Shown: positions 1 through 42,200 of the stretch, one piece after another
Layout of the letters: each line of letters starts with the position of its first letter
Numbering within the stretch: position 1 is the stretch's first letter
Origin: a virus
Lineage: Duplodnaviria; Caudoviricetes
DNA length: 56,120 nucleotides
Virus record (IMG/VR): IMGVR_UViG_3300046331_000690
Location: 1-56,120 of that record
Strand: one strand, 5' to 3'
Notes under the pieces: model-generated
What the model was told of the DNA's origin: nothing
The model's input: only the letters and a program-made list of their open reading frames with translations
Databases searched by the model: none
Program-made: the position numbers and the translations under genes

Positions 1-117
1 CAAAGGAAGATAGGCCAATTTAGAGTGCAACATATAAAATTTATTCTACGGGCAAAAGAATGGTATATGGAGGCATTGATTGATAGTAAGATTGAGTTTG
101 TGGGAGGGGAGGATTAA
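1..117 (+). CDS. 3' part of a 70-aa hypothetical protein spanning the window join (56025..56120 + 1..117)
   Basis: Manual translation gives MARIQLV...SFEYN|QRKIGQF...VGGED*. The TAA at 115-117 overlaps the AAC core of repeat R0. Confidence 0.75.
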   Translation, partial: QRKIGQFRVQHIKFILRAKEWYMEALIDSKIEFVGGED

Positions 118-238
118 CGCACAGGGCTTAACGCAGGTGTGGTATTAGATAGGTGATTTACAGCCCTTGTACTTGGCTTGGATATATATGCTGCCGATAG
201 CCTGATTGTCAAGCCACACTTGCGGTAAACCCAATGTT
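116..238. repeat. attC-like hairpin repeat R0
   Basis: AAC..GGGCTTAACGCAGGTGTGG...CCACACTTGCGGTAAACCC..GTT, 123 bp. Confidence 0.85.
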
Positions 239-266
239 GGCTGCTGTACGGTAAAAAAATAAAGAA

Positions 267-518
267 ATGACAAAAGAAAGTATCATAGAATTACAAAAGA
301 TTGATTGCAACTGTAATGATTGTAAACACCTTGTCCGTGATTTTGAAAAATATAAATTATTTGATGGTTTATATACAAATGAGAAGGGTCAGGTTACAAG
401 TCCATCACATCGTGTCAATTATGGTAATTGTCAAAAATTAAATAAGGCGGTATCGTTTATTCCGAATACCTGTCAATTAGAAACGCAAGGCTGCTTTGAA
501 CATCGGAGAGTAGTATAG
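267..518 (+). CDS. Cassette 1: Cys-rich hypothetical protein
   Basis: 83-aa ORF with a CNCNDC motif. Its stop lies in the cassette right end. Confidence 0.75.
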   Translation: MTKESIIELQKIDCNCNDCKHLVRDFEKYKLFDGLYTNEKGQVTSPSHRVNYGNCQKLNKAVSFIPNTCQLETQGCFEHRRVV

Positions 519-523
519 CGTAC

Positions 524-645
524 AACGCCTACGGCTTGGCGAAGTGGGGGAATTATACCCACAAAAGCCGATTAGAATTACTAATGTTTAATAACAGATA
601 AAAGATGATAGAAGCAGTCAGCCCCCATTTTGCCAAACCGATGTT
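524..645. repeat. attC-like hairpin repeat R1
   Basis: AAC..CGGCTTGGCGAAGTGGGGG...CCCCCATTTTGCCAAACCG.ATGTT, 122 bp. Confidence 0.85.
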
Positions 646-2008
646 ACCTGCTGGTGCGGTTGGTTTACGAGTACTTTCCTTATTCGATGGAATGAGCTGT
701 GGGCAACAAGCACTTGAAAGAATTGGTGTAAATGTTTTGGAATATTACGCAAGTGAAATTGATAAACACGCTATTGCAGTAACGATGCACAATTACCCAA
801 ATACAAAGCAATTAGGAAGCGTTATTGATGTGGATGGATATACACTACCAAAGATTGATTTATTGATTGGTGGAAGCCCTTGCCAAAGTTTTTCATTTGC
901 TGGCAAACGAAAAGGAATGAGTACAAAATGCGAAACAGAAATATTGACTTTAGAACACTATTTGGAATTGAAAAATGAAGGTTACGAATTTGAAGGGCAA
1001 AGCTATTTATTTTGGGAGTATATGAGATTGCTTAACGAAGTCAAACCAAAATACTTTTTACTTGAAAATGTACTGATGGGCGAAAAATGGGAAAAGATAT
1101 TGAGTAAAGCAATTGGAGTAAAACCAATTGAAATAAACTCTGCTTTAGTATCTGCTCAAAATCGAAGAAGATTATACTGGACAAATATTGGAATGCAACC
1201 AATGGGATTATTTGGAGATTTAGAAAACATAATACCGCAACCAAAAGACAAAGGTATTTTGTTAAAAGATATACTTGAAAGTGAAGTTGATGACAAATAT
1301 TATTTGAGCCAACAACGAATTGAAACAATGCTGAAAAGTGAAAGAAGTGTGCCTTATGTTGATGAAGAAACAAAGAAATTCAATTGCTTATTGGCTGTAT
1401 ATAATAAAATACCTACTGATGGGCAATATGTGGTACACAACACAATGCCACGAAGTAGCACAACTGGCAAAGGCGGTAGCGGACCACTAAGCCGAAATGA
1501 TGGTAAAACCTATTGCTTAGATACTGGAAGCACAAATGCAATTGAATTAGTTGGATGTATAAAGTTTGGCAGAACAGATGAGGCAAAGGAAATGAGAAAA
1601 GAAAGTATGAAAAATGGCAAAGATTATACACCATTTCAAGCCAAAGAAATAACTGGTATTGATTACGATAAAATGAATACGCTTACTACTGCAATAAATA
1701 AAGATAACCTGGTAATGCAATTAAATCCATCAACTGAAAGTAATGGATGCCAACCTTACCAACAAAATAGAATTTATGATACAGATGGAATTAGCCCCGC
1801 CTTAATGGCTCAAATGAGTTGTGGCACTCACGCCATAAAACACGAAAGAAAAATAAGAAGATTAACACCTTTAGAGTGTGAAAGACTGCAAACCGTTAAA
1901 TATGGATATACAAGTGTAGCTTCTGATAGTCAGCGATACAGAATGTTAGGTAATGGATGGACTGTTGATGTTATTGCTCACATATTATCTTACGGAGAAT
2001 GGTCGTAG
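641..2008 (+). CDS. Cassette 2: C5-cytosine DNA methyltransferase
   Basis: Motifs LSLFDG (I), GGSPCQ (IV), LENV (VI), QNRRR (VIII), RRLTPLECERLQ (IX) and LGNGW (X). The likely start is ATG 641 inside the repeat; the ORF track gives 605. Confidence 0.92.
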   Translation: MLPAGAVGLRVLSLFDGMSCGQQALERIGVNVLEYYASEIDKHAIAVTMHNYPNTKQLGSVIDVDGYTLPKIDLLIGGSPCQSFSFAGKRKGMSTKCETEILTLEHYLELKNEGYEFEGQSYLFWEYMRLLNEVKPKYFLLENVLMGEKWEKILSKAIGVKPIEINSALVSAQNRRRLYWTNIGMQPMGLFGDLENIIPQPKDKGILLKDILESEVDDKYYLSQQRIETMLKSERSVPYVDEETKKFNCLLAVYNKIPTDGQYVVHNTMPRSSTTGKGGSGPLSRNDGKTYCLDTGSTNAIELVGCIKFGRTDEAKEMRKESMKNGKDYTPFQAKEITGIDYDKMNTLTTAINKDNLVMQLNPSTESNGCQPYQQNRIYDTDGISPALMAQMSCGTHAIKHERKIRRLTPLECERLQTVKYGYTSVASDSQRYRMLGNGWTVDVIAHILSYGEWS

Positions 2009-2019
2009 CACTTGCAGGT

Positions 2020-2141
2020 AACGGTGGGCATATTACGCAGGTTTGGAGGCTTTGCAATCAGATCCAAACCAGCACTAAAGCCCGGCTCTGCAAGCTGACC
2101 AGGATATGACTTCCAGCCAAACTTGCGTAAATGCCGTTGTT
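2020..2141. repeat. attC-like hairpin repeat R2
   Basis: AAC..GGCAT[A]TTACGCAGGTTTGG...CCAAACTTGCGTAAATGCC..GTT, 122 bp, with one bulged A. Confidence 0.85.
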
Positions 2142-2195
2142 GTGTGCTGTTTTTCTTAGGGTTTTACAACTATCTTTAAAATAATTGTAAATAAA

Positions 2196-2231
2196 TTAGG
2201 AAAATACAATTTGACGGCATATATTTGTATT
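2196..2231 (+). promoter_or_regulatory. Putative Bacteroidota promoter inside cassette 3
   Basis: TTAG(2196-99)-N20-TATATTTG(2220-27), overlapped by the inverted repeat AATACAA/TTGTATT. Confidence 0.55.
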
Positions 2232-2246
2232 ACAAAAGCAAAAAAC

Positions 2247-2501
2247 ATGACAAAGACAATTTCACAATTACGCAAAGAAGCAAACAAAGCACCTAAGTAC
2301 GTTTTAAAAATGGACGGACTTGATTTATTTGTTGCCGACAAACAGGCTTTAACTGGCTGCAATATCACTGAAGATGTAAAGAAGGCTAAAATGTTTTCAG
2401 TTGGTTTTGATAATGAAGAAATGAAAGCTGGAGTATGGACGGCAGTTGCACAGTTAATGACTAATAACAAAGATGTAAAGTTTGAAGTAATGTATTTATG
2501 A
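2247..2501 (+). CDS. Cassette 3, gene 1: hypothetical protein
   Basis: ORF with ATG 2247 after an A-rich leader. Confidence 0.7.
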   Translation: MTKTISQLRKEANKAPKYVLKMDGLDLFVADKQALTGCNITEDVKKAKMFSVGFDNEEMKAGVWTAVAQLMTNNKDVKFEVMYL

Positions 2502-3169
2502 GAATAATAGTAGGATGCGAAGAAAGCGGCGAAGTACGTGATGCCTTTATAAAATTAGGGCATGATGCAATTAGCTGCGATTTAAAGCCATCAAGGAACG
2601 GCGGGCCACATTATCAGGGCAGCATCTTTGATATAGACTACTCTGATTTTGATTTGGCTATAATTCATCCACCATGCACTTACTTATGCGTTACTGCAAA
2701 TAAATGGCTTAAAGACCAACCTGCCAGAAAAAGCGGGGCATTAGTTGGAGCAGAAAGGCGGCAAGCCGTAAAAGAGGCACATGATTTTTTTATAGCCTGC
2801 TGGAAATTACCAGTTAAAAGAATGTGTATTGAAAACCCTGTAGGCGTAATGAGTTCATTATGGCGAAAGCCGGATCAAATCATACAACCGTGGCAATTTG
2901 GGCATAATGAACCAAAAAAAACCTGCCTTTGGCTGCGTGGCTTGCCACTATTAAAACACACTAAAATAATGGAACCGGAATATCATATAACAAAATCCGG
3001 GAAACGATTGCCTAAGTGGTATGCTTATGCTGATAAAAGCAAAGGGCAGGCACACAGGGCAGAAATTAGAAGCAAAACATTCACAGGCATTGCGGAAGCA
3101 ATGGCAAACCAATGGACAAATGAAAAGAAGATTATTTCACCTGTACTTGAAATCAACTTTGGAGCATAA
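2498..3169 (+). CDS. Cassette 3, gene 2: short phage C5-cytosine methyltransferase-like protein
   Basis: GCEESG (motif I-like), HPPCT (IV), IENP (VI), and C-terminal RSKTFTGIAEAMA. Confidence 0.75.
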   Translation: MRIIVGCEESGEVRDAFIKLGHDAISCDLKPSRNGGPHYQGSIFDIDYSDFDLAIIHPPCTYLCVTANKWLKDQPARKSGALVGAERRQAVKEAHDFFIACWKLPVKRMCIENPVGVMSSLWRKPDQIIQPWQFGHNEPKKTCLWLRGLPLLKHTKIMEPEYHITKSGKRLPKWYAYADKSKGQAHRAEIRSKTFTGIAEAMANQWTNEKKIISPVLEINFGA

Positions 3170-3341
3170 ATATTATGGCTCTTTAAAAGCGATTTTTATT
3201 GACACTACAAACCCGGATTTAGGAGTAAGCAAATTTACCCTGGACAGGTTTGATTTTGTCCAGCCCTACGAAAATGAAGTTTGTGTAATTCGTAAAGGCT
3301 TTATGCAGTCCACCGGCGATATTAGGACTGCTACCAAATAG
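3120..3341 (+). CDS. Cassette 3, gene 3: small hypothetical protein, possibly DNA-binding
   Basis: In-frame ATG 3120 within ORF 3021..3341. The stop lies in the cassette right end. Confidence 0.6.
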   Translation: MKRRLFHLYLKSTLEHKYYGSLKAIFIDTTNPDLGVSKFTLDRFDFVQPYENEVCVIRKGFMQSTGDIRTATK

Positions 3342-3346
3342 CACAC

Positions 3347-3469
3347 AACGGATTGGGGCTTGTAGCAGTAGTGGATCTATAGCACTACTGTTCAATACAC
3401 CACTAAAGCTGATTAGAAGTACACAGCTCAAAACTTGCACTTCTGCCCCTATTGCTACAAACCCTTGTT
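3347..3469. repeat. attC-like hairpin repeat R3
   Basis: AAC..GGGCTTGTAGCAGTAG...CTATTGCTACAAACCC.TTGTT, 123 bp. Confidence 0.85.
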
Positions 3470-3520
3470 AGCGGTAGTACGGTAAAATAAATAAGGGTGT
3501 AAAAATTAAAAACAGAAAAA

Positions 3521-3853
3521 ATGAAAAAAGCATTTATCAAATGGATGTCCAACCAAAACTGGATTTACAACTTAGCAGTAAAATTAATTGCTAACAGAAT
3601 TGTACACGGTCAAAATCAACTTACGCCTAAATATCTAATGGATAGAGGATGGGTTGAAGAAGAAGGATTTTTTGTTGAGTCAAACATTAAAGACCGTGAT
3701 AAGATTTGGATAAAGTTTGAAAACCACTATTTCAGAATTTGGCACGGCAAAGAAAGAACCTTTATCGGTTTAGAAAGCAAAGTTGAATGGTTTGAAAACT
3801 ACTATCTACTTGCTCACGGTGATAATGGTCGCTACCAACTTGCAGGTGTGTAG
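3521..3853 (+). CDS. Cassette 4: hypothetical protein
   Basis: 110-aa ORF that fills the cassette. Confidence 0.75.
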   Translation: MKKAFIKWMSNQNWIYNLAVKLIANRIVHGQNQLTPKYLMDRGWVEEEGFFVESNIKDRDKIWIKFENHYFRIWHGKERTFIGLESKVEWFENYYLLAHGDNGRYQLAGV

Positions 3854-3863
3854 TATTACCGCT

Positions 3864-3991
3864 AACGAACAGGGCTTGGCTGCACGTACCGGAATTTGAA
3901 ATACTGAATTTCAGCCCTTGTACAAAAGCCCGGTTATGTACCGAAGTTGATAGTCAAATTGTCAAGCCGGTATTGCGCCAAACCCCATGTA
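3864..3991. repeat. attC-like hairpin repeat R4 (right core GTA)
   Basis: AAC..GGGCTTGGC..TACCGG...CCGGTA..GCCAAACCC..GTA, 128 bp. Shares CAGCCCTTGTAC and TTGTCAAGCC with R0. Confidence 0.8.
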
Positions 3992-4051
3992 CTACGTAGT
4001 ATTTTCTTGTGCTGCGGAGCATTTTTAAGTAACAATTTAAAAACTATAACA

Positions 4052-4447
4052 ATGATAACAAGAGATTTATTCAGACTTCCTTTCGGAAACCACAAGTTAA
4101 CAGATGGGATTTATACTTTCTTGCTTCAAAAAGAAAATTCCGATTATCTCCGAAAGACTACTTACAGCATAAGGCAATACGACTCTTTATCGGGAGGTTC
4201 GGTTACATTTTATGAAGATATTGACGATGTTTTTGATAACACAAGCCGATATAAGCAAAAGGTTTTAAAATATAGAGTATTCATTACGGGAATGTCTTTT
4301 GGTGGTAGGGATGATTTATGGAATGTACTTTACAACTTAAAATACGTTCCTAAGTCCTCTTATAAAGAGTGGTTAAAAAAAGTTGAAGGAATAATGTCCA
4401 TCCAAATTGAAAAACAAATGTGTGGCGTTGGCGAAAATATTACGTAG
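4052..4447 (+). CDS. Cassette 5: hypothetical protein
   Basis: Likely ATG at 4052; the upstream part of ORF 3947 is repeat sequence. Confidence 0.7.
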   Translation: MITRDLFRLPFGNHKLTDGIYTFLLQKENSDYLRKTTYSIRQYDSLSGGSVTFYEDIDDVFDNTSRYKQKVLKYRVFITGMSFGGRDDLWNVLYNLKYVPKSSYKEWLKKVEGIMSIQIEKQMCGVGENIT

Positions 4448-4571
4448 TACGGTTCGGGGCTTTAAGAAGTTGGGGTTTCAAAGCTCAAATGTTCGTTTAA
4501 GCACTACTGTTGATTAGAATTACAAAAGTTGGGGTTTATCACTTCTGCCCCAATTTCTTAAACCCCTTGTT
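4448..4571. repeat. attC-like hairpin repeat R5 (left core TAC)
   Basis: TAC..GGGGCTTTAAGAAGTTGGGG...CCCCAATTTCTTAAACCCC.TTGTT, 124 bp. Shares GCACTACTGTT, GATTAGAA and CACTTCTGCCCC with R3. Confidence 0.85.
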
Positions 4572-4626
4572 ATGCCATCGTTGCGGTTTTCAAGGCAGGA
4601 AGTTTAACTTAAAAACAATTTAAAAA

Positions 4627-5343
4627 ATGAAATTAATAGCACTTGGCGACACTCACGGCAGAACAGATTGGAAGCAAATAGTTTCTAATACTGAATTTGA
4701 TAAAGTAATATTTATTGGCGACTACTTTGATACTCACGAAGATATTACACCTGAACAGCAGAAGTCAAATTTTGAAGATCTGATTAAATACAAAATAGCC
4801 AATATGGATAAAGTTGTTTTACTTTTTGGCAACCACGACTATCATTATTTAAAAACTGTAAATGAAACTTATAGTGGTTTTCAAGAATGGCACAGGACAG
4901 ATATAGCAGAGATGTTACACAAAGCATTAGGTGCTGATTTAATGCAAATGTGCCTAATTGATGGTAATTACATTTTTAGCCACGCAGGTGTAACAAAAAC
5001 TTGGTTGAAAAATACTGGTTATACAGGCGAAGACCCATTAGAATTATTTATAAATGATTTGTTTAAATATCAGCCATTGGCTTTTAGGTTTACAAGTGGT
5101 GTTAATCATTCTCCTTATGGTGATGATATTTGCCAAACGCCAATATGGGTTCGCCCACAAAGTTTGTATGCAGATTGTTTGGATAATTTTATTCAAGTTG
5201 TTGGGCATACTACACAAAAGCAATTAAAGATTATAGACGACAAGATAGTATTGATTGATACAATCGGAATGTCTGGTCAATTTCTTTGTATCACTGATGG
5301 TGAAATGTCCGTTTTGGAACTATCACGTAGCAATGGGGCATAA
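4627..5343 (+). CDS. Cassette 6: calcineurin-like metallophosphoesterase
   Basis: GDTHG, GDYFD, GNHD, SHAG and GHT motifs. Confidence 0.9.
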   Translation: MKLIALGDTHGRTDWKQIVSNTEFDKVIFIGDYFDTHEDITPEQQKSNFEDLIKYKIANMDKVVLLFGNHDYHYLKTVNETYSGFQEWHRTDIAEMLHKALGADLMQMCLIDGNYIFSHAGVTKTWLKNTGYTGEDPLELFINDLFKYQPLAFRFTSGVNHSPYGDDICQTPIWVRPQSLYADCLDNFIQVVGHTTQKQLKIIDDKIVLIDTIGMSGQFLCITDGEMSVLELSRSNGA

Positions 5344-5472
5344 CGCTGGGCATATTGCGAAGTTGGGGTAATAGAATTACTGTCGCTTGGTAGCTTATTG
5401 CACAACTGCTCAACAAAGATTTAAACTCCGATTGCGGTTCCGTCAAGCCCCAATTTAGCAAATGCCTATGTT
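5342..5472. repeat. attC-like hairpin repeat R6
   Basis: AAC..GGCAT[A]TTGCGAAGTTGGGG...CCCCAATTTAGCAAATGCC..GTT, 131 bp, with the same bulged A as R2. Confidence 0.85.
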
Positions 5473-5512
5473 GGCTGCTGCTATTAGGGTTCTCAAAATA
5501 ATGTCCTAAATA

Positions 5513-5544
5513 TTTGGTGTAACCAATAAGTTACACTACATTTG
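5513..5544 (+). promoter_or_regulatory. Bacteroidota promoter with a palindromic operator in cassette 7
   Basis: TTTG(5513-16)-N20-TACATTTG(5537-44). The spacer is GTGTAAC-caataa-GTTACAC. Confidence 0.7.
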
Positions 5545-5558
5545 ATAAAACATTTATT

Positions 5559-5807
5559 ATGGCAACAGTAACAAAAAACGCAAAAGAACTGAGTTTTAAA
5601 CAAATAACTATTGGTGAATTGCAACACGCTGATTTTTTTTCTCTTAATGGTAAATCATTTTTCATCTTTTCAAGAGTGGAAGAAATCGGATTAGGATTAG
5701 TTTCTATTCATTACCTATCAACGGTGAAATGGCAATCGTATGACAGGGTAATCAGGAATGATAAAAAGGTGTTTGTTGCACCATTAGGGAGGCATTATGA
5801 AGGATAA
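5559..5807 (+). CDS. Cassette 7, gene 1: hypothetical protein
   Basis: 82-aa ORF downstream of the promoter. Confidence 0.7.
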   Translation: MATVTKNAKELSFKQITIGELQHADFFSLNGKSFFIFSRVEEIGLGLVSIHYLSTVKWQSYDRVIRNDKKVFVAPLGRHYEG

Positions 5808-5994
5808 AATATTTAACTACATAAATGCTGCTGCTTTCTTTTCTGAATACTTGCCACACATTAAAAGCTATAAACACAAATTACGTGGCAAAAATGGTAG
5901 AGGAAACATTGTTGACTTTACAGATAAAGAAAAAAAGGAAATAAACGCTGCCTTGAAAAAACTCTTTAAAGAATTAGGGGGTGTCGCAAAGTAG
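5797..5994 (+). CDS. Cassette 7, gene 2: small DNA-binding protein (DUF5053-like)
   Basis: KLRGKNGRGNIVDFTDKEKKEINAAL resembles the DUF5053 C-terminal pattern (recalled, not searched). Confidence 0.5.
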   Translation: MKDKIFNYINAAAFFSEYLPHIKSYKHKLRGKNGRGNIVDFTDKEKKEINAALKKLFKELGGVAK

Positions 5995-6040
5995 CAGCCA
6001 ACATCTTTTTTAATGCACTCTCTTTAAAAATCAACATTTT
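5990..6040. other. Putative attI-like primary recombination site
   Basis: The last cassette ends in AAC (6000-02) with no hairpin after it, 38 bp before the recombinase ATG. Confidence 0.55.
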
Positions 6041-6922
6041 ATGAATAGGAAAAATGAATTATTACAGCAATTTAAAAATGAATTGAGTTTGAGAAATTAT
6101 GCTATGAATAGTATAGATACTTACAGTGGGTATCTATCACAGTTTTTTGAAGCAATGAAAGGCAAACCAAAGCCATTGCAAATTGAGGAGATTAAACAAT
6201 TTTTGTTATCCATCACCAACATGAATACCAGGGCAATGTTTGTAAATAGCATCCGTAATTTTTATAGCTACATTTTAAAAACGCCTTTGAGTTTAGATGA
6301 TATTCCTTATCCACGTAAGACAAGTTATTTGCCACAAATACTAAGCATACAAGAGGTAGATCGAATGATGAAATGTGTTGTAAATATTAAGCATAAAGCC
6401 ATTTTGCAAACCATGTATAGTTGCGCTTTGCGTATAAGTGAAGTGCCAGAAATTGAATGCAATACTAATATATGTCACTTGGATAGCAGCAGAAAAACAT
6501 TGCTGGTGAAAGGTGCCAAGGGTTTTAAAGATCGGTATGTACCAATACCTATTCCTACCATTATATTGCTTCGCAATTACAGAATAGCAGATAATAAAGG
6601 AAAGTGGTTATTTATGGGGCAAAATCAACAAAAATATTCTGTGAGAAGTATTCAGCAGATTTTTCACCGTGCAAAAGAAGCTGCACATATTGCCAAAAAA
6701 GTAACGCCACATTCATTAAGGCATAGCCGCCTTACTCACCTATGCGAAGCTGGGATGGATATATACAAGCTAAAGGAATTTGCCGGGCACAACAATATTA
6801 AAACAACTGAAATTTATTTGCACCTCAGTAAATCATCACTGGTAAATAATACCGAGCTGGCAGACCTGATCATTGCACAGTCATTGCATAACAGTGAATT
6901 ATTAATAGAATTAGGAAATTAA
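6041..6922 (+). CDS. Tyrosine recombinase, integron-integrase-like/XerD-like
   Basis: N-terminal SAM-like segment (LRNYAMNSIDTY) and catalytic motifs LRISE, KGFKDR, HSLRHS, AGH, TTEIY. The IntI-specific insertion is absent. Confidence 0.93.
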   Translation: MNRKNELLQQFKNELSLRNYAMNSIDTYSGYLSQFFEAMKGKPKPLQIEEIKQFLLSITNMNTRAMFVNSIRNFYSYILKTPLSLDDIPYPRKTSYLPQILSIQEVDRMMKCVVNIKHKAILQTMYSCALRISEVPEIECNTNICHLDSSRKTLLVKGAKGFKDRYVPIPIPTIILLRNYRIADNKGKWLFMGQNQQKYSVRSIQQIFHRAKEAAHIAKKVTPHSLRHSRLTHLCEAGMDIYKLKEFAGHNNIKTTEIYLHLSKSSLVNNTELADLIIAQSLHNSELLIELGN

Positions 6923-6923
6923 A

Positions 6924-7364
6924 ATGAGAACACCCTTCACTTTAGCTGATCTTAAAAAAACGCCTTGTGCGGCAATTAATCAGCACCTCTTTGTTGCGCC
7001 GGTTAAGAAAAAAGAAAAGAGCCTTGGCAAGCAAAAAACATGGATTCAGTTTAGATTACTCCAGTTTGCAGAAAGCAACAAACTGGAGCTTAAAGAAGAA
7101 CATAGATTTCACGATGAGCGCAAGTGGCGTTTCGATTGGGCAATACCTGAGCTGCATATAGCATTTGAATACGAAGGTATCTTTTCAGCTAAAAGCCGCC
7201 ATACTACAGCCAAAGGTTTTACAGGTGATGCAGAAAAATATAACGCTGCTCAATCTGCAGGATGGATAGTTTACAGATACACTGCAATAAACTACTTAGA
7301 TTTGGTAACTGATCTAAATAATTTGCCCGGTATTATTCAAAAAGAAAAAGATTTATTCAAATAG
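6924..7364 (+). CDS. PD-(D/E)XK endonuclease (DUF559/Vsr-like)
   Basis: EHRFH..RKWRFDWA...AFEYEG...RH...D.EKYN.AQ..GW.VYR. Confidence 0.75.
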   Translation: MRTPFTLADLKKTPCAAINQHLFVAPVKKKEKSLGKQKTWIQFRLLQFAESNKLELKEEHRFHDERKWRFDWAIPELHIAFEYEGIFSAKSRHTTAKGFTGDAEKYNAAQSAGWIVYRYTAINYLDLVTDLNNLPGIIQKEKDLFK

Positions 7365-7378
7365 AGTAACTTTGACTT

Positions 7379-7933
7379 ATGGCCAAAAAACAATTGACCG
7401 ATTTAAAACAGGATCCGAGCAACTTTAATCAGCATTCTCAATTTGGTATGGGCCTACTGGAAAAGTCAATAAGGAAGTTTGGTTTTGTAGAAGCTGGCCT
7501 TATTAGTGAAGATGATGTTATCTGCTCAGGAAATGCCAGGCAGGAGACCGCAGTTAGTATTGGAATGGAAGATGTGCAGATAATTGATATAGATGGTAGT
7601 AAACCCGTTTATCTACGAAAAAAAGGACTAAAAAGCGGCTCACAGGAATTTAAAGAACTTGGATTGGCTTTAAATGCTGTAGGTAAAGCTAATGTGGTAT
7701 TGGATGCTGAATTGATTGAAGCCGAATTGGGGGATGCTGTTTGTGAGGAGTGGGGAATTGAAAAAGAATTAAACTATAGTAGTAAAAATAAAGAAATTGA
7801 TTTAGATGAAAATGAACGTTTTACTATTGAATTAAATTTTACTGCTGATAATTTTTTCAGCATTAAAGAGGCAATTGCTGCCAAAGGGATAACTGCTGAA
7901 TCTATTCTACTTAAAGCTTTGAATATTGACTAA
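7379..7933 (+). CDS. ParB-like N-terminal domain protein
   Basis: LKQDPSNFNQH..LEKSIRKFGF..ICSGNAR pattern; sits directly before a methyltransferase. Confidence 0.65.
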   Translation: MAKKQLTDLKQDPSNFNQHSQFGMGLLEKSIRKFGFVEAGLISEDDVICSGNARQETAVSIGMEDVQIIDIDGSKPVYLRKKGLKSGSQEFKELGLALNAVGKANVVLDAELIEAELGDAVCEEWGIEKELNYSSKNKEIDLDENERFTIELNFTADNFFSIKEAIAAKGITAESILLKALNID

Positions 7934-8984
7934 ACATAAATTTCCATATAACTGGAACTTAGCAGACGGCTATCCTGCTAAAGGAATTGAACCGAATAAT
8001 TTAAATGTATTCGGAACTTTTATTTGCGGTGGTGGCTCAACTATGGGTTATAAATTAGCAGGCTTCAATCATTTAGGCGGAGTTGAAATAGATAAAAAAG
8101 TTGCAGCAGTTTATAAACTTAATCATAATCCAAAGCACCTTTTTATTGAAGATTTAAGAGCATTTAACCAAAGAAATGATTTGCCAGATCAATTATTTGA
8201 ATTGGATATTTTAGATGGTTCTCCACCATGCAGCACTTTTTCTATGGCTGGAAATAGAGAAAAAGACTGGGGTAAAGAAAAAATGTTTAGAGAGGGGCAG
8301 GCTATGCAAACATTGGATGACCTTGTTTTTGTGTACACTGACACTATTTTAAAACTAAGGCCAAAGGTTGCAATACTTGAAAATGTTAAAGGATTGATTC
8401 AGGCAAATGCCAGAGCCTATCTGCATCAAATAAAAAACCACCTTCAACTGGCCGGATATTCAGTTCAGGTTTTTTGTCTAAATGCAGCATCTATGGGAGT
8501 ACCACAAAAAAGAGAAAGAGTATTTTTAATTGCAAGGCAAACCACCTTCAACTGGCCGGATATTCAGTTCAGGTTTTTTGAAAAACCAATATTATTTGGA
8601 GAATTATCAAAATTAAACCCAAATGGAAAATTCAAAGAAATTATTGACTCTTGCAAAGATTTATGGAAAAATGCAAAACAAGGCTGCGGTCTTAATACAG
8701 TGCATCCAAATGGAAGCTCGTTTTTTTCTAAACGAAAGGTATCAGATAAAGAAGTTTGTGGAACTTTAACAGCACATGCAGATGAGGATTTTATGCACTC
8801 AACTGAGTTTAGGTGCTTAAATGAAGATGAGTTTAAGTTTATCGGAAGTTATCCAAAAGATTATAATTTTATTAATATTAATCCTGCTTATCTAATAGGC
8901 ATGTCAGTTCCTCCCGTAATGACAGCACAAATAGCACATCAGATTTATTTGCAATGGTTTAAAACGGAGGTAGAAAATGCGTAA
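7926..8984 (+). CDS. C5-cytosine DNA methyltransferase
   Basis: FICGGG, GSPPCS, LENV, QKRER and GMSVPP motifs; TTG start. Confidence 0.9.
   Translation: MTKHKFPYNWNLADGYPAKGIEPNNLNVFGTFICGGGSTMGYKLAGFNHLGGVEIDKKVAAVYKLNHNPKHLFIEDLRAFNQRNDLPDQLFELDILDGSPPCSTFSMAGNREKDWGKEKMFREGQAMQTLDDLVFVYTDTILKLRPKVAILENVKGLIQANARAYLHQIKNHLQLAGYSVQVFCLNAASMGVPQKRERVFLIARQTTFNWPDIQFRFFEKPILFGELSKLNPNGKFKEIIDSCKDLWKNAKQGCGLNTVHPNGSSFFSKRKVSDKEVCGTLTAHADEDFMHSTEFRCLNEDEFKFIGSYPKDYNFININPAYLIGMSVPPVMTAQIAHQIYLQWFKTEVENA
8435..8580. repeat. Exact 42-bp direct repeat (8435-8476 and 8539-8580)
   Basis: AAACCACCTTCAACTGGCCGGATATTCAGTTCAGGTTTTTTG occurs twice. Confidence 0.9.
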
Positions 8985-9468
8985 ACCAGACAAACAAACC
9001 ATTATAGATTTTATCATTAGTTGCCTTGAAAAAGGAGAGCAACGTGGTAACATATTGGTAAAAACTGGTAAAAAGTGGGGAACTAGTAAATCTGCCTTTG
9101 ATAGATGGCTAAAAATAGCAAAGCAGCAGTTAACTGATAAGCAGCAGGCCATTAAAAAGGAACTGGAAGCTATTGATAAAGCAGCAGCTATTGAAGCTCG
9201 TAAAAAGGCTATAATGACCGCAGATGAAAGGAAAGAATATTTGACTAAAATCATAAATGGAGAAGTAAAATTTAAAAAGCCATTTTTTGTAAAAGGTAAA
9301 ATAATGGAATACCCTGCTGAACCGGATGTAGCTGATAGGATGAAAGCAATATCTGAATTGAACAAAATGGAGGGTGACTATGCAGAAACAGCTATTAGGT
9401 TAAAAGGAGATGCTCTTTCTCCTTTAGAAATCTTCATAAATGGCAAACCAGCAGGTGCCGGTAGTTAA
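8977..9468 (+). CDS. terS: Terminase small subunit
   Basis: N-terminal HTH, DRMKAISELNKMEG motif, and position directly upstream of TerL. Confidence 0.75.
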   Translation: MRKPDKQTIIDFIISCLEKGEQRGNILVKTGKKWGTSKSAFDRWLKIAKQQLTDKQQAIKKELEAIDKAAAIEARKKAIMTADERKEYLTKIINGEVKFKKPFFVKGKIMEYPAEPDVADRMKAISELNKMEGDYAETAIRLKGDALSPLEIFINGKPAGAGS

Positions 9469-10792
9469 TATAAATATTGACTATGACAGTGTATTTCTAC
9501 CTGTTTACAAGCCGCTCAGAAATACTGATGCCCGGTTAAAATTTGTATATGGTGGCCGGGATAGCGGTAAGAGCCGGGATAGAGCCCAACAAAAAATAAT
9601 TGATTGCCTTTCTAAAAAGTATTTCCGATGCATCCTGATTAAAAAAACTGCAAATTCAATCAAGGATAGCCAGTGGCAGTTGATAAAAGATATTTGTGAG
9701 GAATGGAATATTGATCACCTGTTCCAGTTTAATACCAGCCCATTAGAGATTAAGTGTAAAGTAAATGGAAACAAATTCATTTGCCGGGGTATGGATGATC
9801 CTGCAAAGATTAAATCTATCAATGAGCCTTCAGATGCCTGGATAGAGGAAGGCAATCAACTTACTTTAGAAGACTGGATTTATATTATAACCACTCTCCG
9901 GAGCAATAGAGGACCAGTGAGTATTGATATGACCTTCAATACTGAAACTAAGGGAGATTATGAAGACTTCTGGCTGTATAAGGAGTATTTTAGCCATACT
10001 ACAGAAAAGAGTTTTACCCATACCAAAACGATCAGCTTTGGCAATGAAAAGGTAGATCTTAAATACATTGCCGTACATAGTACCTACCATGATAATCCAC
10101 ATGTTAGCATTGAAAGAAAGGCCTATCATGAAGGTTTGCAAACCTTAAATTTTTACTGGTACCGGGTATTTACTCAAGGCCTTTGGGGAAATGAAGAAAA
10201 CAATAGTCCATGGTTATTTGCATTTGACCGGGCAAAACATGTAAGTGCTGTAGAGCTATTTGCCAAGCGATCAGAGATACTGTATATAAGTTTTGACTTT
10301 AACCGGAATCCGCATGCGTGCACCATCATTCAATGGTATGATGAAACAGTATTTATTATTGAAGTGCTTAAAATACCGAATGTAGGTACTGAGGGTATCT
10401 GTGATATTGCAAAAGAGAAATATCCTGGCTTTTTATATGTTGTGACTGGTGACTATTCCGGTGATACTGTTTCTTCCCTGTTTAAAGAGCAGGTTACCAA
10501 TTATACCATCATTAAAAAATCGCTCTCTCTTAATGATGGACAGGTAAAGATTTCACCAAACCCAAGACTGGAGAAAAACCAAACGCTTGTAAATACCATT
10601 TTTAGTAAGTATAAAATATTGATGTGCCCGGTAAAGGCAAAGCCAGCCATTTATGATGCAGAAAAAGTAAATACGAGGGCAGATGGAACAATTGTAAAAG
10701 ATGATAGAAATGATCCTACACAACAGGCCGATGTACTGGATACTCTTCGTTATTGGTTCAACCAGTTTATGGGATGGTTTATAAAAAAATAA
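9440..10792 (+). CDS. terL: Terminase large subunit (PBSX-like)
   Basis: Walker A YGGRDSGKS, Walker B WIEE, TFN coupling motif, nuclease SFDFN and D..D.LRY. Confidence 0.93.
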   Translation: MANQQVPVVNINIDYDSVFLPVYKPLRNTDARLKFVYGGRDSGKSRDRAQQKIIDCLSKKYFRCILIKKTANSIKDSQWQLIKDICEEWNIDHLFQFNTSPLEIKCKVNGNKFICRGMDDPAKIKSINEPSDAWIEEGNQLTLEDWIYIITTLRSNRGPVSIDMTFNTETKGDYEDFWLYKEYFSHTTEKSFTHTKTISFGNEKVDLKYIAVHSTYHDNPHVSIERKAYHEGLQTLNFYWYRVFTQGLWGNEENNSPWLFAFDRAKHVSAVELFAKRSEILYISFDFNRNPHACTIIQWYDETVFIIEVLKIPNVGTEGICDIAKEKYPGFLYVVTGDYSGDTVSSLFKEQVTNYTIIKKSLSLNDGQVKISPNPRLEKNQTLVNTIFSKYKILMCPVKAKPAIYDAEKVNTRADGTIVKDDRNDPTQQADVLDTLRYWFNQFMGWFIKK

Positions 10793-28807: not shown

Positions 28808-28880
28808 AGCAGTGTAGAGCAGCTGGTAGCTCGAAAGTCTCATAATCTTTAGGTCGCTGGTTCGAGTCCAGCCACTGCAA
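28808..28880 (+). tRNA. tRNA-Met (CAT), initiator-like
   Basis: Cloverleaf: GCAGTG/CACTGC acceptor with unpaired 1:72, GAGC/GCTC D-stem, CTCATAA loop, GCTGG-TTCGAGT-CCAGC T arm. Confidence 0.85.
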
Positions 28881-28895
28881 CAAAAAATTTAAACT

Positions 28896-40751: not shown

Positions 40752-40988
40752 ATGCGCTATATGTTCACTGCTATTATTGCAATTCCATCCTACCATATTG
40801 GTTTTTTAGACATTTTTGAGGTTGACAACAATACATATTTTGCAAACCCTAAAAACTCATGGGAAAGCCTACACTATCCTCCAGAGTATGTACAGTTTTA
40901 CTTTTCAAAAATTGGTTCAACATGGAAAACTGAACCACATGTACTTCAGAATATTTTAGAACAAGTTATTGAGCAAGGGGGGTTATGA
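40752..40988 (+). CDS. Hypothetical protein
   Basis: 78-aa ORF converging on the integrase. Confidence 0.5.
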   Translation: MRYMFTAIIAIPSYHIGFLDIFEVDNNTYFANPKNSWESLHYPPEYVQFYFSKIGSTWKTEPHVLQNILEQVIEQGGL

Positions 40989-42200
40989 AAAACTATTTGC
41001 CACCTTTTTAAGCCGTTGGTGTTGCCTTTCTTTTTCTCCATGTGCATAGTGCGATAAAGTTATTACAGGTGTTGTATGGCCAGCCATATCAGCTGCAGAC
41101 TGAATATCCAAAGCCGCTGCTATTTCATCTAAATTAGAATGCTTTAAACTATAGAAATCAGCAGAAATGTTAAGTCCACCTTTTTCAACTGTAGCTTTTA
41201 CGTGTGTCCTCCAGCGCCGGGTAATTTGCTCTGGCCTGATCTGTTTTACTCCTGGTTTAAGGCCAACACTAAATATAAAATCTTCTGGTTTTGCATCTTT
41301 CAGCAATTCTTCCCATAGGGGGAGTATATTATCTTTAATCGTTCTTAGCTGTTCATTTGTTTGTTTACCTTTTTTTACTAATAATTTGTATTGCTGTTTC
41401 TCAAGATAAATATCTTTTCTTTGAACCCTTAATAATTCAGTTTCCCGGCTGCCAGAATGAAAGAAAATTTGCATAAAACGCCAAAAGGAATAAGTTTTTA
41501 TTTTTAAATGATTATTTATTTTGGTTCTTTCTTCAGCTGTAAGGGTCTGTCTTATCCTTTTTATCACTTTCTTCTTTTTTAAATCTTTCACAGGATTTAT
41601 TTCTGTAGCCTCCATTTCTACCAATTCAGAGAATAGTATCATTAAGTATGATCTAAATTTATTGTAACGGTCATTGCTGAACTTAGGATTGATAATGGCC
41701 ACCTGCTCCAACAGTGCTTTAATATGCTTTCTTCTTACATCTCCAATTGTTAAAGCAGTAATATGCATTTGTCTGGCAGCGGCCTCTAATGCTTTAATTA
41801 CACATTTGATATCCTCAGTAGTATGTGGTTCAACTTTCAATTTTGGTAAAACCTCCCAAAAAGCTTCTATAAATTTTGTACCTGGATGAATCTCGTGGTT
41901 CAATACTACCGGTTTAATAAATTCTCCAGTAATAGGGTTGTATCCTTCATATTGAAGCATCATCAATAGCTCATCCATTACTACCTGTACAGCAGATCTT
42001 CTTTCCTGTAATGTTTTAAAGCGATTGATTTTGCTTTTCAGAATTTTTAAACAACCCTTTTTATATTTTTCTTTGAAAGCAGGGTCATGAAAATAGTATT
42101 GAATGTACCATTCCTTTTTTACAGAAGCAGATTGTGTTTTCCAGTTTTTCGGGAAAACAGTAGGTTCGCTGCAGGTGCAGCCATTTGGTAGTTGTAGCAT
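40983..42200 (-). CDS. int: Prophage tyrosine integrase
   Basis: GSRETE, KKGK, YSLKH, AGH and HY motifs; adjacent to attP. Confidence 0.92.
   Translation of the reverse strand: MLQLPNGCTCSEPTVFPKNWKTQSASVKKEWYIQYYFHDPAFKEKYKKGCLKILKSKINRFKTLQERRSAVQVVMDELLMMLQYEGYNPITGEFIKPVVLNHEIHPGTKFIEAFWEVLPKLKVEPHTTEDIKCVIKALEAAARQMHITALTIGDVRRKHIKALLEQVAIINPKFSNDRYNKFRSYLMILFSELVEMEATEINPVKDLKKKKVIKRIRQTLTAEERTKINNHLKIKTYSFWRFMQIFFHSGSRETELLRVQRKDIYLEKQQYKLLVKKGKQTNEQLRTIKDNILPLWEELLKDAKPEDFIFSVGLKPGVKQIRPEQITRRWRTHVKATVEKGGLNISADFYSLKHSNLDEIAAALDIQSAADMAGHTTPVITLSHYAHGEKERQHQRLKKVANSFS

Follow-up and report, generated by a model that had tools for sequence, protein, structure and literature searches.

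The window analysed here, a 56,120-nucleotide stretch of DNA from a freshwater phage, opens with an array (positions 116–6922) in which hairpin repeats, or cores, alternate with unrelated genes and lead up to the gene of a tyrosine recombinase. The cores were scored with R1, a covariance model built from the seven repeats of the window. The features of the array are as follows:

116–238, + strand: hairpin core 1 (attC-like), far end of the array (R1 109 bits; fold)
267–518, + strand: cassette 1 gene, 83 aa, no family
524–645, + strand: hairpin core 2 (R1 93 bits)
605–2008, + strand: cassette 2 gene, C5 cytosine DNA methyltransferase (PF00145, 7.7e-40; TIGR00675)
2020–2141, + strand: hairpin core 3 (R1 65 bits)
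2211–3169, + strand: cassette 3 genes, a small unknown (2211–2501) and a DNA methyltransferase (2498–3169; phrog_757, 1.3e-61)
3347–3469, + strand: hairpin core 4 (R1 99.7 bits)
3521–3853, + strand: cassette 4 gene, 110 aa, no family
3864–3991, + strand: hairpin core 5, with a GTA end instead of GTT (R1 79.9 bits)
4052–4447, + strand: cassette 5 gene, 131 aa, no family
4448–4571, + strand: hairpin core 6, with a TAC start instead of AAC (R1 103 bits)
4627–5343, + strand: cassette 6 gene, calcineurin-like metallophosphoesterase (PF00149, 7.4e-12)
5342–5472, + strand: hairpin core 7, closest to the recombinase (R1 98 bits)
5559–5994, + strand: cassette 7 genes, an 82-aa unknown and a 65-aa DUF5053 protein (PF16476, 2.2e-06)
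5990–6040, + strand: attI-like site (AAC at 6000–6002; the next 38 nt conserved in related phages)
6041–6922, + strand: Xer-like tyrosine recombinase, 293 aa, without the IntI-specific insert

The unrelated cargo described in the sequence-only reading, comprising two methyltransferases, a metallophosphoesterase and small unknowns, was found in full. The methyltransferase gene of cassette 2 has its start codon inside core 2, core 3 together with the 120 nt to its right is similar to positions 3514–3744 of a related viral locus, L003, and an 18-nt inverted repeat (3989–4006 with 4433–4450) encloses cassette 5. Comparison of the window cassette proteins with the related viral loci revealed no close relatives, with matches for methyltransferase alone (26–29%), and the methyltransferase genes were also the sole matches in a blastn comparison of the array with isolate phages. 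Because its cargo consists largely of DNA methyltransferases, the array probably serves the phage as a store of anti-restriction and other accessory genes. The placement of the end of the array 38 bp before the recombinase holds for the last cassette boundary, the AAC at 6000–6002, with the recombinase ATG at 6041, but not for the last full hairpin, which ends at 5472.

The seven hairpin repeats proposed from the sequence are matched by R1 on the + strand at exactly those seven places, with scores of 65–109 bits (E values of 1.6e-28 to 3.8e-16) and lengths of 122–131 nt. The other matches in the 56,120-base window are four weak minus-strand echoes at the same places (15.6–27.5 bits) and one unrelated match (E 0.56), leaving the model built from the seven repeats with no other strong match in the 56 kb genome. 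At the Rfam gathering score, the repeats belong to no family, and the sole match is a tRNA. Each repeat pairs its ends into a long terminal stem and varies in the middle. The folding z-scores of single repeats on the + strand are modest (−1.2 to −4.4), and the real evidence for the structure is therefore covariation. Among 18 copies from four phages, in an alignment fitted to the covariance model, 92.7% of the stem cells are paired, versus 66.1% in shuffles and 40–49% with slid partners, and compensatory changes are observed in 12 of 17 stem pairs. One G.T stem pair is kept in 17 of the 18 copies and corresponds to an A.C mismatch on the opposite strand. The core strand is the more stable one, by a modest energy advantage, in 24/31 phage cores and 33/50 bacterial cores. 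As in attC-type sites, the repeats are imperfect hairpins with AAC and GTT ends, the structure of which is kept across divergent sequences. The AAC...GTT boundary ascribed to every repeat is present in five of the seven; core 5 ends in GTA and core 6 begins with TAC, two mutually complementary trinucleotides that bracket cassette 5.

The recombinase matches PF00589 and PF13495 in Pfam, and its closest folds are XerA and IntI4. Residues R131, K160, H224, R227, H250, and Y259 are invariant in 19 family members and can be read, from the alignments with XerA and IntI4, as the catalytic R-K-H-R-H-Y set. The integron integrase profile TIGR02249 matches the enzyme in two stretches with 131 bits, compared with a cut-off of 265, and residues 168–203 (36 aa) lie opposite residues 168–246 of IntI4 (79 aa), such that the enzyme is approximately 43 residues shorter there. 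In both alignments, the IntI-specific additional domain in the catalytic half is absent. The enzyme is also below the Xer family cut-offs (XerA_Arch, 180 versus 220; XerC, 143 versus 335; XerD, 133 versus 330). With a recombinase that is Xer-like and has no IntI-specific insert, the system falls outside integrons as strictly defined: the earlier description of an integron-like platform with its own tyrosine recombinase is supported, with the correction that the enzyme is not an IntI. The distinction drawn between this recombinase and the prophage integrase is borne out by a separate 405-aa integrase at 40983–42200 on the minus strand.

Cores accompany this recombinase in other viruses. In all 12 viral loci that have a 34–74% identical recombinase and some upstream DNA, cores are located upstream on the same strand, with 32 core matches upstream and 2 downstream of the recombinase. 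One locus with a 75% identical recombinase and 1.9 kb of upstream DNA (L017) contains no core match. At greater distance, no convincing core was found with R1 in L018–L026 (25–32% identity), of which L018 and L019 alone were also searched with the core model R2, and no core match was found in L043 (27% identity). Among cultured Polaribacter phages, Leef_1 and Freya_6 have the same layout, their sites having been found solely via inverted repeats and reading of the sequence. R1 and R2 have no matches in Leef_1, Ingeline_1, or P12002L, and no clear array was seen in Ingeline_1 from inverted repeats.

The recombinase lineage of the window phage also occurs in its likely host bacteria. Hairpin model matches are present in 89 of 151 Chitinophagaceae genomes, and arrays on their chromosomes can reach 20 or more cassettes. 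The same recombinase family adjoins all three of the large chromosomal arrays examined. Since the same system fills Chitinophagaceae chromosomes, it is not a phage peculiarity. Cores are found in 56/65 Chitinophagaceae genomes with the recombinase versus 33/86 without it (odds ratio 10, p=2e-9, uncorrected for phylogeny). Recombinase presence was judged on 24 scored candidates per genome, and most genomes are draft; on this basis, 33 genomes contain cores with the recombinase undetected, and 9 contain the recombinase and no cores. A scan of genome contigs with the recombinase yielded a single locus (27% identity), which has no adjoining core, and the same genome is core-rich elsewhere.

The recombinase at 6041–6922 would be the catalyst of cassette exchange. 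Alternatively, the hairpins could be ordinary attC sites moved by a host IntI, the phage array being a CALIN and the Xer-like gene being otherwise employed, for example in the resolution of phage genome multimers. The AAC and GTT ends and the geometry of the hairpins fit attC, and integrase-less attC clusters in virulent phages are described in sections of Qi et al. 2023 (PMC9892861). This alternative is nevertheless unlikely. In six core-rich Chitinophagaceae genomes, no IntI above the cut-off was found, and all IntI-profile matches in these genomes are without profile positions of about 180–238. In addition, the Xer-like family co-occurs with the cores and adjoins them, and a conserved capture site lies directly before the Xer-like gene. 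The abundance of cores in Chitinophagaceae also differs from the result of IntegronFinder 2.0, which, in the portion of its report drawn on here, is almost nothing in Bacteroidetes (PMC9024848).

In the preferred reading, in which the recombinase of the element exchanges the cassettes, capture would occur at the attI-like site. The left part of this site (5990–5999) is complementary to the right flank of core 7, and in five related phages nucleotide homology begins at its AAC, 38 nt before the recombinase ATG. A capture site is thus situated beside the recombinase gene, and the same left-hand DNA is found joined to attI or to a core. As visualized in L003 and L032, a 174-nt segment of 100% identity (3992–4165 and 1–174, respectively) ends at AAC and continues into attI in one locus and into a hairpin core in the other. 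A similar break pattern at AAC is observed for L005 and core 1 of L003. The cassette common to L003 and L038 has TAC at its end and starts after GTA in both, which therefore places the crossover 3′ of the first base of AAC. The ends of each cassette are also matched to each other: across 17 adjacent phage pairs, the 10 nt following GTT in core n are complementary to the 10 nt preceding AAC in core n+1 at 7.8/10 positions, compared with 3.5/10 in 323 non-adjacent pairs (p=1e-10) and 3.0/10 for the two flanks of one core. The corresponding values for 58 adjacent bacterial pairs are 8.7/10 versus 4.9/10 (p=3e-32).

Exchange at the 3′ GTT, in which case each hairpin would belong to the left-hand gene, was rejected on two grounds: genes start inside cores, and both the attI boundary and the TAC/GTA pair locate the crossover at the 5′ AAC. 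In phage arrays, 24 ORFs are sense and none is antisense to the core strand. With the phage cassette genes sense to the folding strand, each hairpin therefore precedes its gene on the 5′ side, and the genes are transcribed in the direction of the recombinase. In bacterial arrays, 54/60 inter-core ORFs are antisense and 6/60 are sense to the core strand.

There is considerable variability in the cassettes of related phages, which keep the recombinase and the 40-nt site before it and carry entirely different cassettes. To the right of attI, L003, L005/L004, and L015 are 99.8–99.9% identical (99.86–99.88% for L003, L005, and L015, over 10.9 kb and 4.2 kb), each with a different attI-adjacent cassette, and L028, L032, and L007 are 89–90% identical, with no cassette in common. 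As judged from these near-identical backbones with different cassettes, cassette turnover is recent. Population variants were drawn from assembled contigs, in which uncovered stretches carry no meaning. Variants are present in contigs from two runs: the left flank of core 5 leads directly into a core-2-like core, and a core-3-like core follows on from the beginning of core 7 and its left-hand DNA. One back-joint in the assembled contigs, from 4556 to 3458 at a depth of 2.7, is ambiguous. Two contig ends, which show a different core preceding the right flank of core 4 (3462) and different sequence following core 4 (3470), point to additional exchange at the GTT side or to core replacement. Fixed gene content and order in relatives, which would have spoken against capture and shuffling of cassettes, was looked for and not seen. 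The sequence-only reading is thus supported on this point by different cassettes on near-identical backbones and by breaks at AAC, whereas dependence on the enzyme is inferred.

Variation of this kind could also arise if the repeats were regulatory cassettes shuffled by ordinary homologous recombination with no dedicated recombinase, similar to PeSLs, a documented phage precedent in the part of the source considered (PMC2839356). Core 3 and a promoter-like stretch recur in L003 and L032 before unrelated genes, and some of the contig joints lie inside arms common to two cores. Such shuffling is very unlikely, however, because the breaks occur exactly at one trinucleotide, AAC, between partners without shared homology (attI and core). 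Neither the cassette-specific end complementarity nor the compensating GTA...TAC pair is explained by it, and the recombinase is conserved beside arrays across 34–100% identity. A role of the hairpins in RNA, as terminators, processing sites, or translational elements, with cassette variation as ordinary phage mosaicism, is scarcely credible: the phage hairpins are intergenic on the coding strand, the kept wobble would be G.U in RNA, and several genes begin inside the hairpin 3′ arm, but the bacterial genes are antisense to the core strand (54/60 inter-core ORFs), where mRNA would bear the weaker complement, and the AAC breakpoints and the end complementarity across each cassette are left unexplained.

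The region 116–6922 is accordingly read, with a probability of approximately 0.8, as a site-specific platform for gene cassettes that functions in the manner of an integron. A cassette would consist of one hairpin core and the gene or genes that follow it and would span from the C of the 5′ AAC of one core to the AA of the AAC of the next. The recombinase would exchange strands at AAC either between two cores, which would excise and reshuffle cassettes, or between a core and the attI-like site (6000–6040), which would capture them. The gene-carrying + strand, with its fixed G.T wobble and A.C on the other strand, is probably the one that folds and recombines. From this wobble and the greater stability of the core strand, we infer that the substrate of recombination is folded single-stranded DNA.

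Integrons are defined by IntI. To our knowledge, they are nearly absent from Bacteroidota, and in phages only rare stray pieces of them are known. Literature searches gave no published description of the present cassette system. We lean towards the view that it represents a second, IntI-independent integron lineage native to Bacteroidota, comprising an insert-less Xer-like enzyme, Chitinophagaceae arrays of 20 or more cassettes, and many scattered single cassettes. Phages of these bacteria and of marine Flavobacteriaceae would carry their own copy, with cassette polarity flipped for transcription with the phage genes, and would swap anti-restriction genes. Such a lineage could be the source of some attC clusters in genomes without IntI. 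A working platform with a different recombinase would untie the integron design from the IntI insert, would give phages a dedicated device for anti-defence gene exchange, and, with cores in so many Chitinophagaceae genomes, would open a large unexplored cassette pool. The idea is directly testable because cultured Polaribacter phages (Leef_1, Freya) share the layout.

Similar to integrons, the platform comprises a tyrosine recombinase gene beside a capture site, followed by a one-directional cassette array, with the capture site between the array and the recombinase gene. A cassette carries a single imperfect hairpin, about 60–190 nt long, that is conserved in structure and not in sequence and has AAC and GTT ends; the crossover falls at AAC on the folding strand, a single base ahead of an unpaired spacer, and the first cassette bases pair with the cassette's own site. 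The platform differs from integrons in the absence of the IntI-specific insert and in the length of the paired end box, which is 13 bp or more here and 7 in integrons. The integron arrangement, in which genes are antisense to the recombined bottom strand and the site is 3′ of the gene, is found in the bacterial arrays but not in the phage arrays.

In CTX phage integration, a simple Xer-type tyrosine recombinase acts on a folded single strand. In the pdif modules of Acinetobacter plasmids, as covered in part of PMC7399989, Xer-type recombinases act at sites flanking accessory-gene modules. Both borrow the host XerC/D and use 28-bp dif-like sites, whereas in the present system the enzyme is part of the element, which has 85–190-nt hairpins in ordered arrays as its sites. 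Xer dimer resolvases (XerC/D/A) likewise differ, in that arrays of long hairpins take the place of a single dif site.

PeSLs work by homologous recombination, and we know of no site-specific recombinase associated with them. Similar to the present arrays, the PeSLs of T4-type phages are repeated stem-loops between accessory genes in variable regions and mediate modular shuffling, according to excerpts of PMC2839356 and PMC4122927. Homology-driven shuffling without a site-specific breakpoint does not describe the present arrays, in which breaks fall at AAC between non-homologous partners. The closest counterparts in cargo are the phage attC clusters of Qi et al. 2023 (PMC9892861), which, in the sections considered, are hairpin-bounded cassettes rich in DNA methyltransferases and include a Polaribacter phage with methyltransferase cassettes, one site of which was recombined by IntI1. 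Those sections describe the clusters (CALINs, 17 in all) as integrase-less and link no Xer-like enzyme to them, whereas in the present system a dedicated recombinase and a capture site belong to the element.

The IMG/VR virus record, 56,120 bases long, is present in full as the window. A covariance model built from the seven AAC...GTT hairpin repeats (cores 1–7, window 116–5472), a check suggested with the sequence-only reading, recovers exactly these seven copies where that reading had placed them, all on the plus strand and with 65–109 bits; the genome otherwise has no notable match to the model, and Rfam holds no family for the hairpin repeats. The repeat array is real. The 293-aa recombinase encoded next to the array (6041–6922) is, as claimed, distinct from the prophage integrase, a classical enzyme on the minus strand.

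Features of the phage genome (window positions)
5990–6002: last half-site, complementary to the right flank of core 7, with AAC as its end
6924–8984: after the recombinase, a phrog_503 protein of unknown function, a ParB-like nuclease-domain protein and a third DNA methyltransferase (C5 type), with no bounding cores
9440–10792: large terminase
28808–28881: tRNA-Met gene, mid phage genome
40983–42200, minus strand: classical 405-aa integrase
toward the window end: helicase and replication genes

All repeats fold with a ~20–25-bp terminal stem that encloses a variable middle of 40–110 nt. Single-sequence folding scores are unremarkable (z −1.2 to −4.4), so the structural case is drawn from covariation. 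In an alignment of 18 copies from four phages, fitted to the covariance model, paired cells amount to 92.7%, versus 66.1% when shuffled and 40–49% with slid partners; compensatory changes are found in 12 of the 17 stem pairs, and a G·T wobble is retained in 17 of the 18 copies. RNAalifold, applied independently to the seven copies in the window, gives 8 compensated pairs of 17. The core strand is somewhat more often the more stable one, both in phages (24 of 31 cores) and in bacteria (33 of 50). The AAC and GTT bounds first ascribed to every repeat apply to most cores; core 5 ends GTA and core 6 begins TAC, and these two deviations compensate each other across a single cassette.

The flank that follows GTT in one core is complementary to the flank that precedes AAC in the next, and does not match the left flank of its own core. 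This complementarity averages 7.8/10 for 17 pairs of adjacent cores in three phages versus 3.5/10 in 323 non-adjacent pairs (p = 1e-10), with 3.0/10 between the two flanks of one core. The AAC of the last half-site lies 38 nt ahead of the recombinase start codon, in agreement with the 38-bp gap first proposed between array and gene. In a circularized cassette, the two ends would come together as the full outer box of that cassette's hairpin.

Comparison with related phages shows where cassettes turn over. Viral contigs with 73–76% identical recombinases have nucleotide homology to the window only from 5999–6000 rightwards, and in a five-phage alignment the stretch from AAC to the start codon, within the attI-like site, is conserved and everything left of AAC is unrelated. 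Viral loci L003, L007, L028 and L032 carry six, four, four and three cores, respectively, with unrelated cargo, among it four more methyltransferases and one restriction-methylase fusion. Relatives searched for different cassette content keep the site and differ in cargo, as the platform idea had anticipated. The backbones of L003, L005/L004 and L015 are 99.86–99.88% identical over 10.9 kb and 4.2 kb, and the site-adjacent cassette differs in each.

Individual breakpoints narrow the position of exchange. L003 3992–4165 is 100% identical to L032 1–174; beyond the AAC at which identity stops, the attI-like site follows in L003 and a core in L032, and comparison of L005 with core 1 of L003 gives the same attI-or-core pattern. 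A cassette common to L003 and L038 starts after GTA and ends TAC in both loci; a core comes next in one locus, attI in the other. This pattern puts the exchange on the 3′ side of the first AAC base. Genes start within the 3′ arm of a core at window 605 and at L003 347, 2030 and 2815; together with the exchange position, these starts show that a core belongs with the gene to its right. Another divergence, between L015 and L003, falls at an AAC 3.3 kb downstream of the recombinase: the two are identical as far as this AAC, where L015 then has a core, which indicates a putative second insertion site in the phage backbone.

Cores downstream of the recombinase
L015 4904–4992 (versus L003 8403)
L032 8563–8686
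L034 3404–3528

Core 3 and ~120 nt to its right are kept in three phages (window 2019–2259, L003 3514–3744, L032 1936–2090); these ~120 nt hold a promoter-like AT-rich stretch, and the genes beyond are unrelated.

Part or all of window 1–7000 is present in 24 freshwater-metagenome runs, and contigs from four of these break at cores; being assembled contigs, they say nothing on circles or variant frequencies. In one, the left flank of core 5 is joined to a core-2-like core; in another, the start of core 7 and the DNA to its left lead into a core-3-like core. At two contig ends, a different core precedes the right flank of core 4, and core 4 itself is followed by different sequence. Exchange on the GTT side, or replacement of cores, seems to occur as well. 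In run X3, summed contig depth over core 4 (window 3205–3471) is 168.7 versus ~20–40 in its neighbours, and core-4-like sequence is probably present in many other contexts within that sample.

The recombinase comprises a SAM-like N-terminal domain and a phage-integrase catalytic domain. Its top curated matches are XerA (180 bits, cut-off 220), then XerC and XerD; against the integron-integrase model it scores 131 bits (cut-off 265), in a match split in two. The predicted structure (mean pLDDT 82.6) is nearest to XerA, IntI4 and archaeal Xer. IntI4 of Vibrio (2a3v) aligns in two pieces, the recombinase being ~43 residues short at the IntI extra domain. The family is large: of 654 candidates, 276 proteins score E ≤ 1e-20, and the top 120 are all at least 49% identical, mostly 282–297 aa and nearly all metagenomic; catalytic-type residues are invariant in 19 members. 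The recombinase is a candidate catalyst of cassette exchange, with a putative folded single strand as substrate.

Enzyme and cores also travel together. A second core model, built from 18 cores, places cores upstream of the recombinase and on the same strand in 12 of 12 further viral loci with upstream DNA present (recombinase 34–74% identical), with 32 matches upstream versus 2 downstream. This model found no core in L017 (75% identity, 1.9 kb upstream), L043 (27%), L018 or L019.

Among isolates, the closest recombinases are those of Polaribacter phage Leef_1 (32.5% identity), Cellulophaga phage Ingeline (28.6%) and Polaribacter phage Freya (25.7%). Leef_1 and Freya_6, Polaribacter phages of different families, both have AAC...GTT hairpins immediately upstream of the recombinase gene, together with inverted repeats that bracket cassettes. 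One 3′ hairpin arm and its flank are almost the same in the two (L012 7552–7580 in Leef_1, L073 5169–5196 in Freya_6), which suggests that these phages may draw on one cassette pool. The accessible part of PMC8776804 takes the recombinase gene of these isolates as a lysogeny marker and mentions neither hairpins nor cassettes. A search of the main texts of the open literature found no published description of these arrays.

The platform had been described as phage-carried; it is found in phages, but also in Chitinophagaceae chromosomes. The 18-core model matches one genome of this family 11 times on seven contigs and, at E ≤ 1e-6, detects cores in 89 of 151 sampled genomes.

Chromosomal arrays in Chitinophagaceae
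G102, L067 (G102:C1:282000–298000): at least 20 cores in 16 kb
G131, L066 (G131:C2:1442000–1458000): 13 cores
G104, L059 (G104:C1:1229000–1246000): 7 cores

All three arrays are one-directional, with short, antisense genes between cores, and each has a recombinase of the same family at one end. Complementarity of cassette ends is 8.7/10 in 58 adjacent bacterial pairs versus 4.9/10 (p = 3e-32). Of the 151 genomes, 56 have recombinase and cores together, 9 have just the recombinase, 33 have just cores, and 53 lack both (odds ratio 10, p = 2e-9, with no correction for phylogeny). Among the bacterial cargo are a mercury-resistance operon, a type III restriction-modification pair, thioredoxin-like proteins and unknowns.

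Loci of one bacterial genome (G001)
L052 8489–12040 (G001:C12), sense to the cores: mercury-resistance operon (MerA-like reductase and MerT-HMA fusion) between two cores, adjoining the recombinase
L054 577–2990 (G001:C3): core, then family recombinase (308 aa), then IS91-type Y2 transposase (PF04986)

The L054 unit may be a mobile element carrying the platform. Single cores are scattered over 5 Mb of G104:C1 (L057, L058, L060, L062, L063, L064), each marking a one-gene cassette of ~500–700 nt that ends in a matching half-site and AAC; a similar AT-rich motif follows AAC in L057, L058 and L063. Going by this motif, many landing sites of a single type may be spread over this chromosome.

Alternatively, the cores could be ordinary attC sites moved by a host IntI. 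Clusters of attC sites lacking an integrase (CALIN) have been reported: in the portions available, Cury et al. 2016 leave unexplained that half of attC clusters lie in genomes without IntI, and Qi et al. 2023 (PMC9892861) describe integrase-less phage clusters, one of them in a Polaribacter phage whose cassettes carry methyltransferases, with no Xer-like enzyme tied to any. Six core-rich Chitinophagaceae genomes were scanned for integron integrases; every match falls short of the cut-off and is missing the insert, and the available text on IntegronFinder 2.0 (PMC9024848) credits Bacteroidetes with only In0 elements and one complete integron. We regard movement by a host IntI as very unlikely.

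The array with its Xer-like recombinase is an integron-like platform, and in this respect the sequence-only reading was essentially right; it falls outside the integron family as defined, since the defining IntI domain was tested for and is absent. The phage cassette ends have the same complementary look as those of integrons. Gene direction equals that of the recombinase gene in bacteria and phages alike; bacterial arrays are located downstream of that gene, phage arrays upstream. All 24 ORFs of the phage arrays are sense to the core strand; in the bacterial arrays, 54 of 60 inter-core ORFs are antisense, as are the genes of classical integrons.
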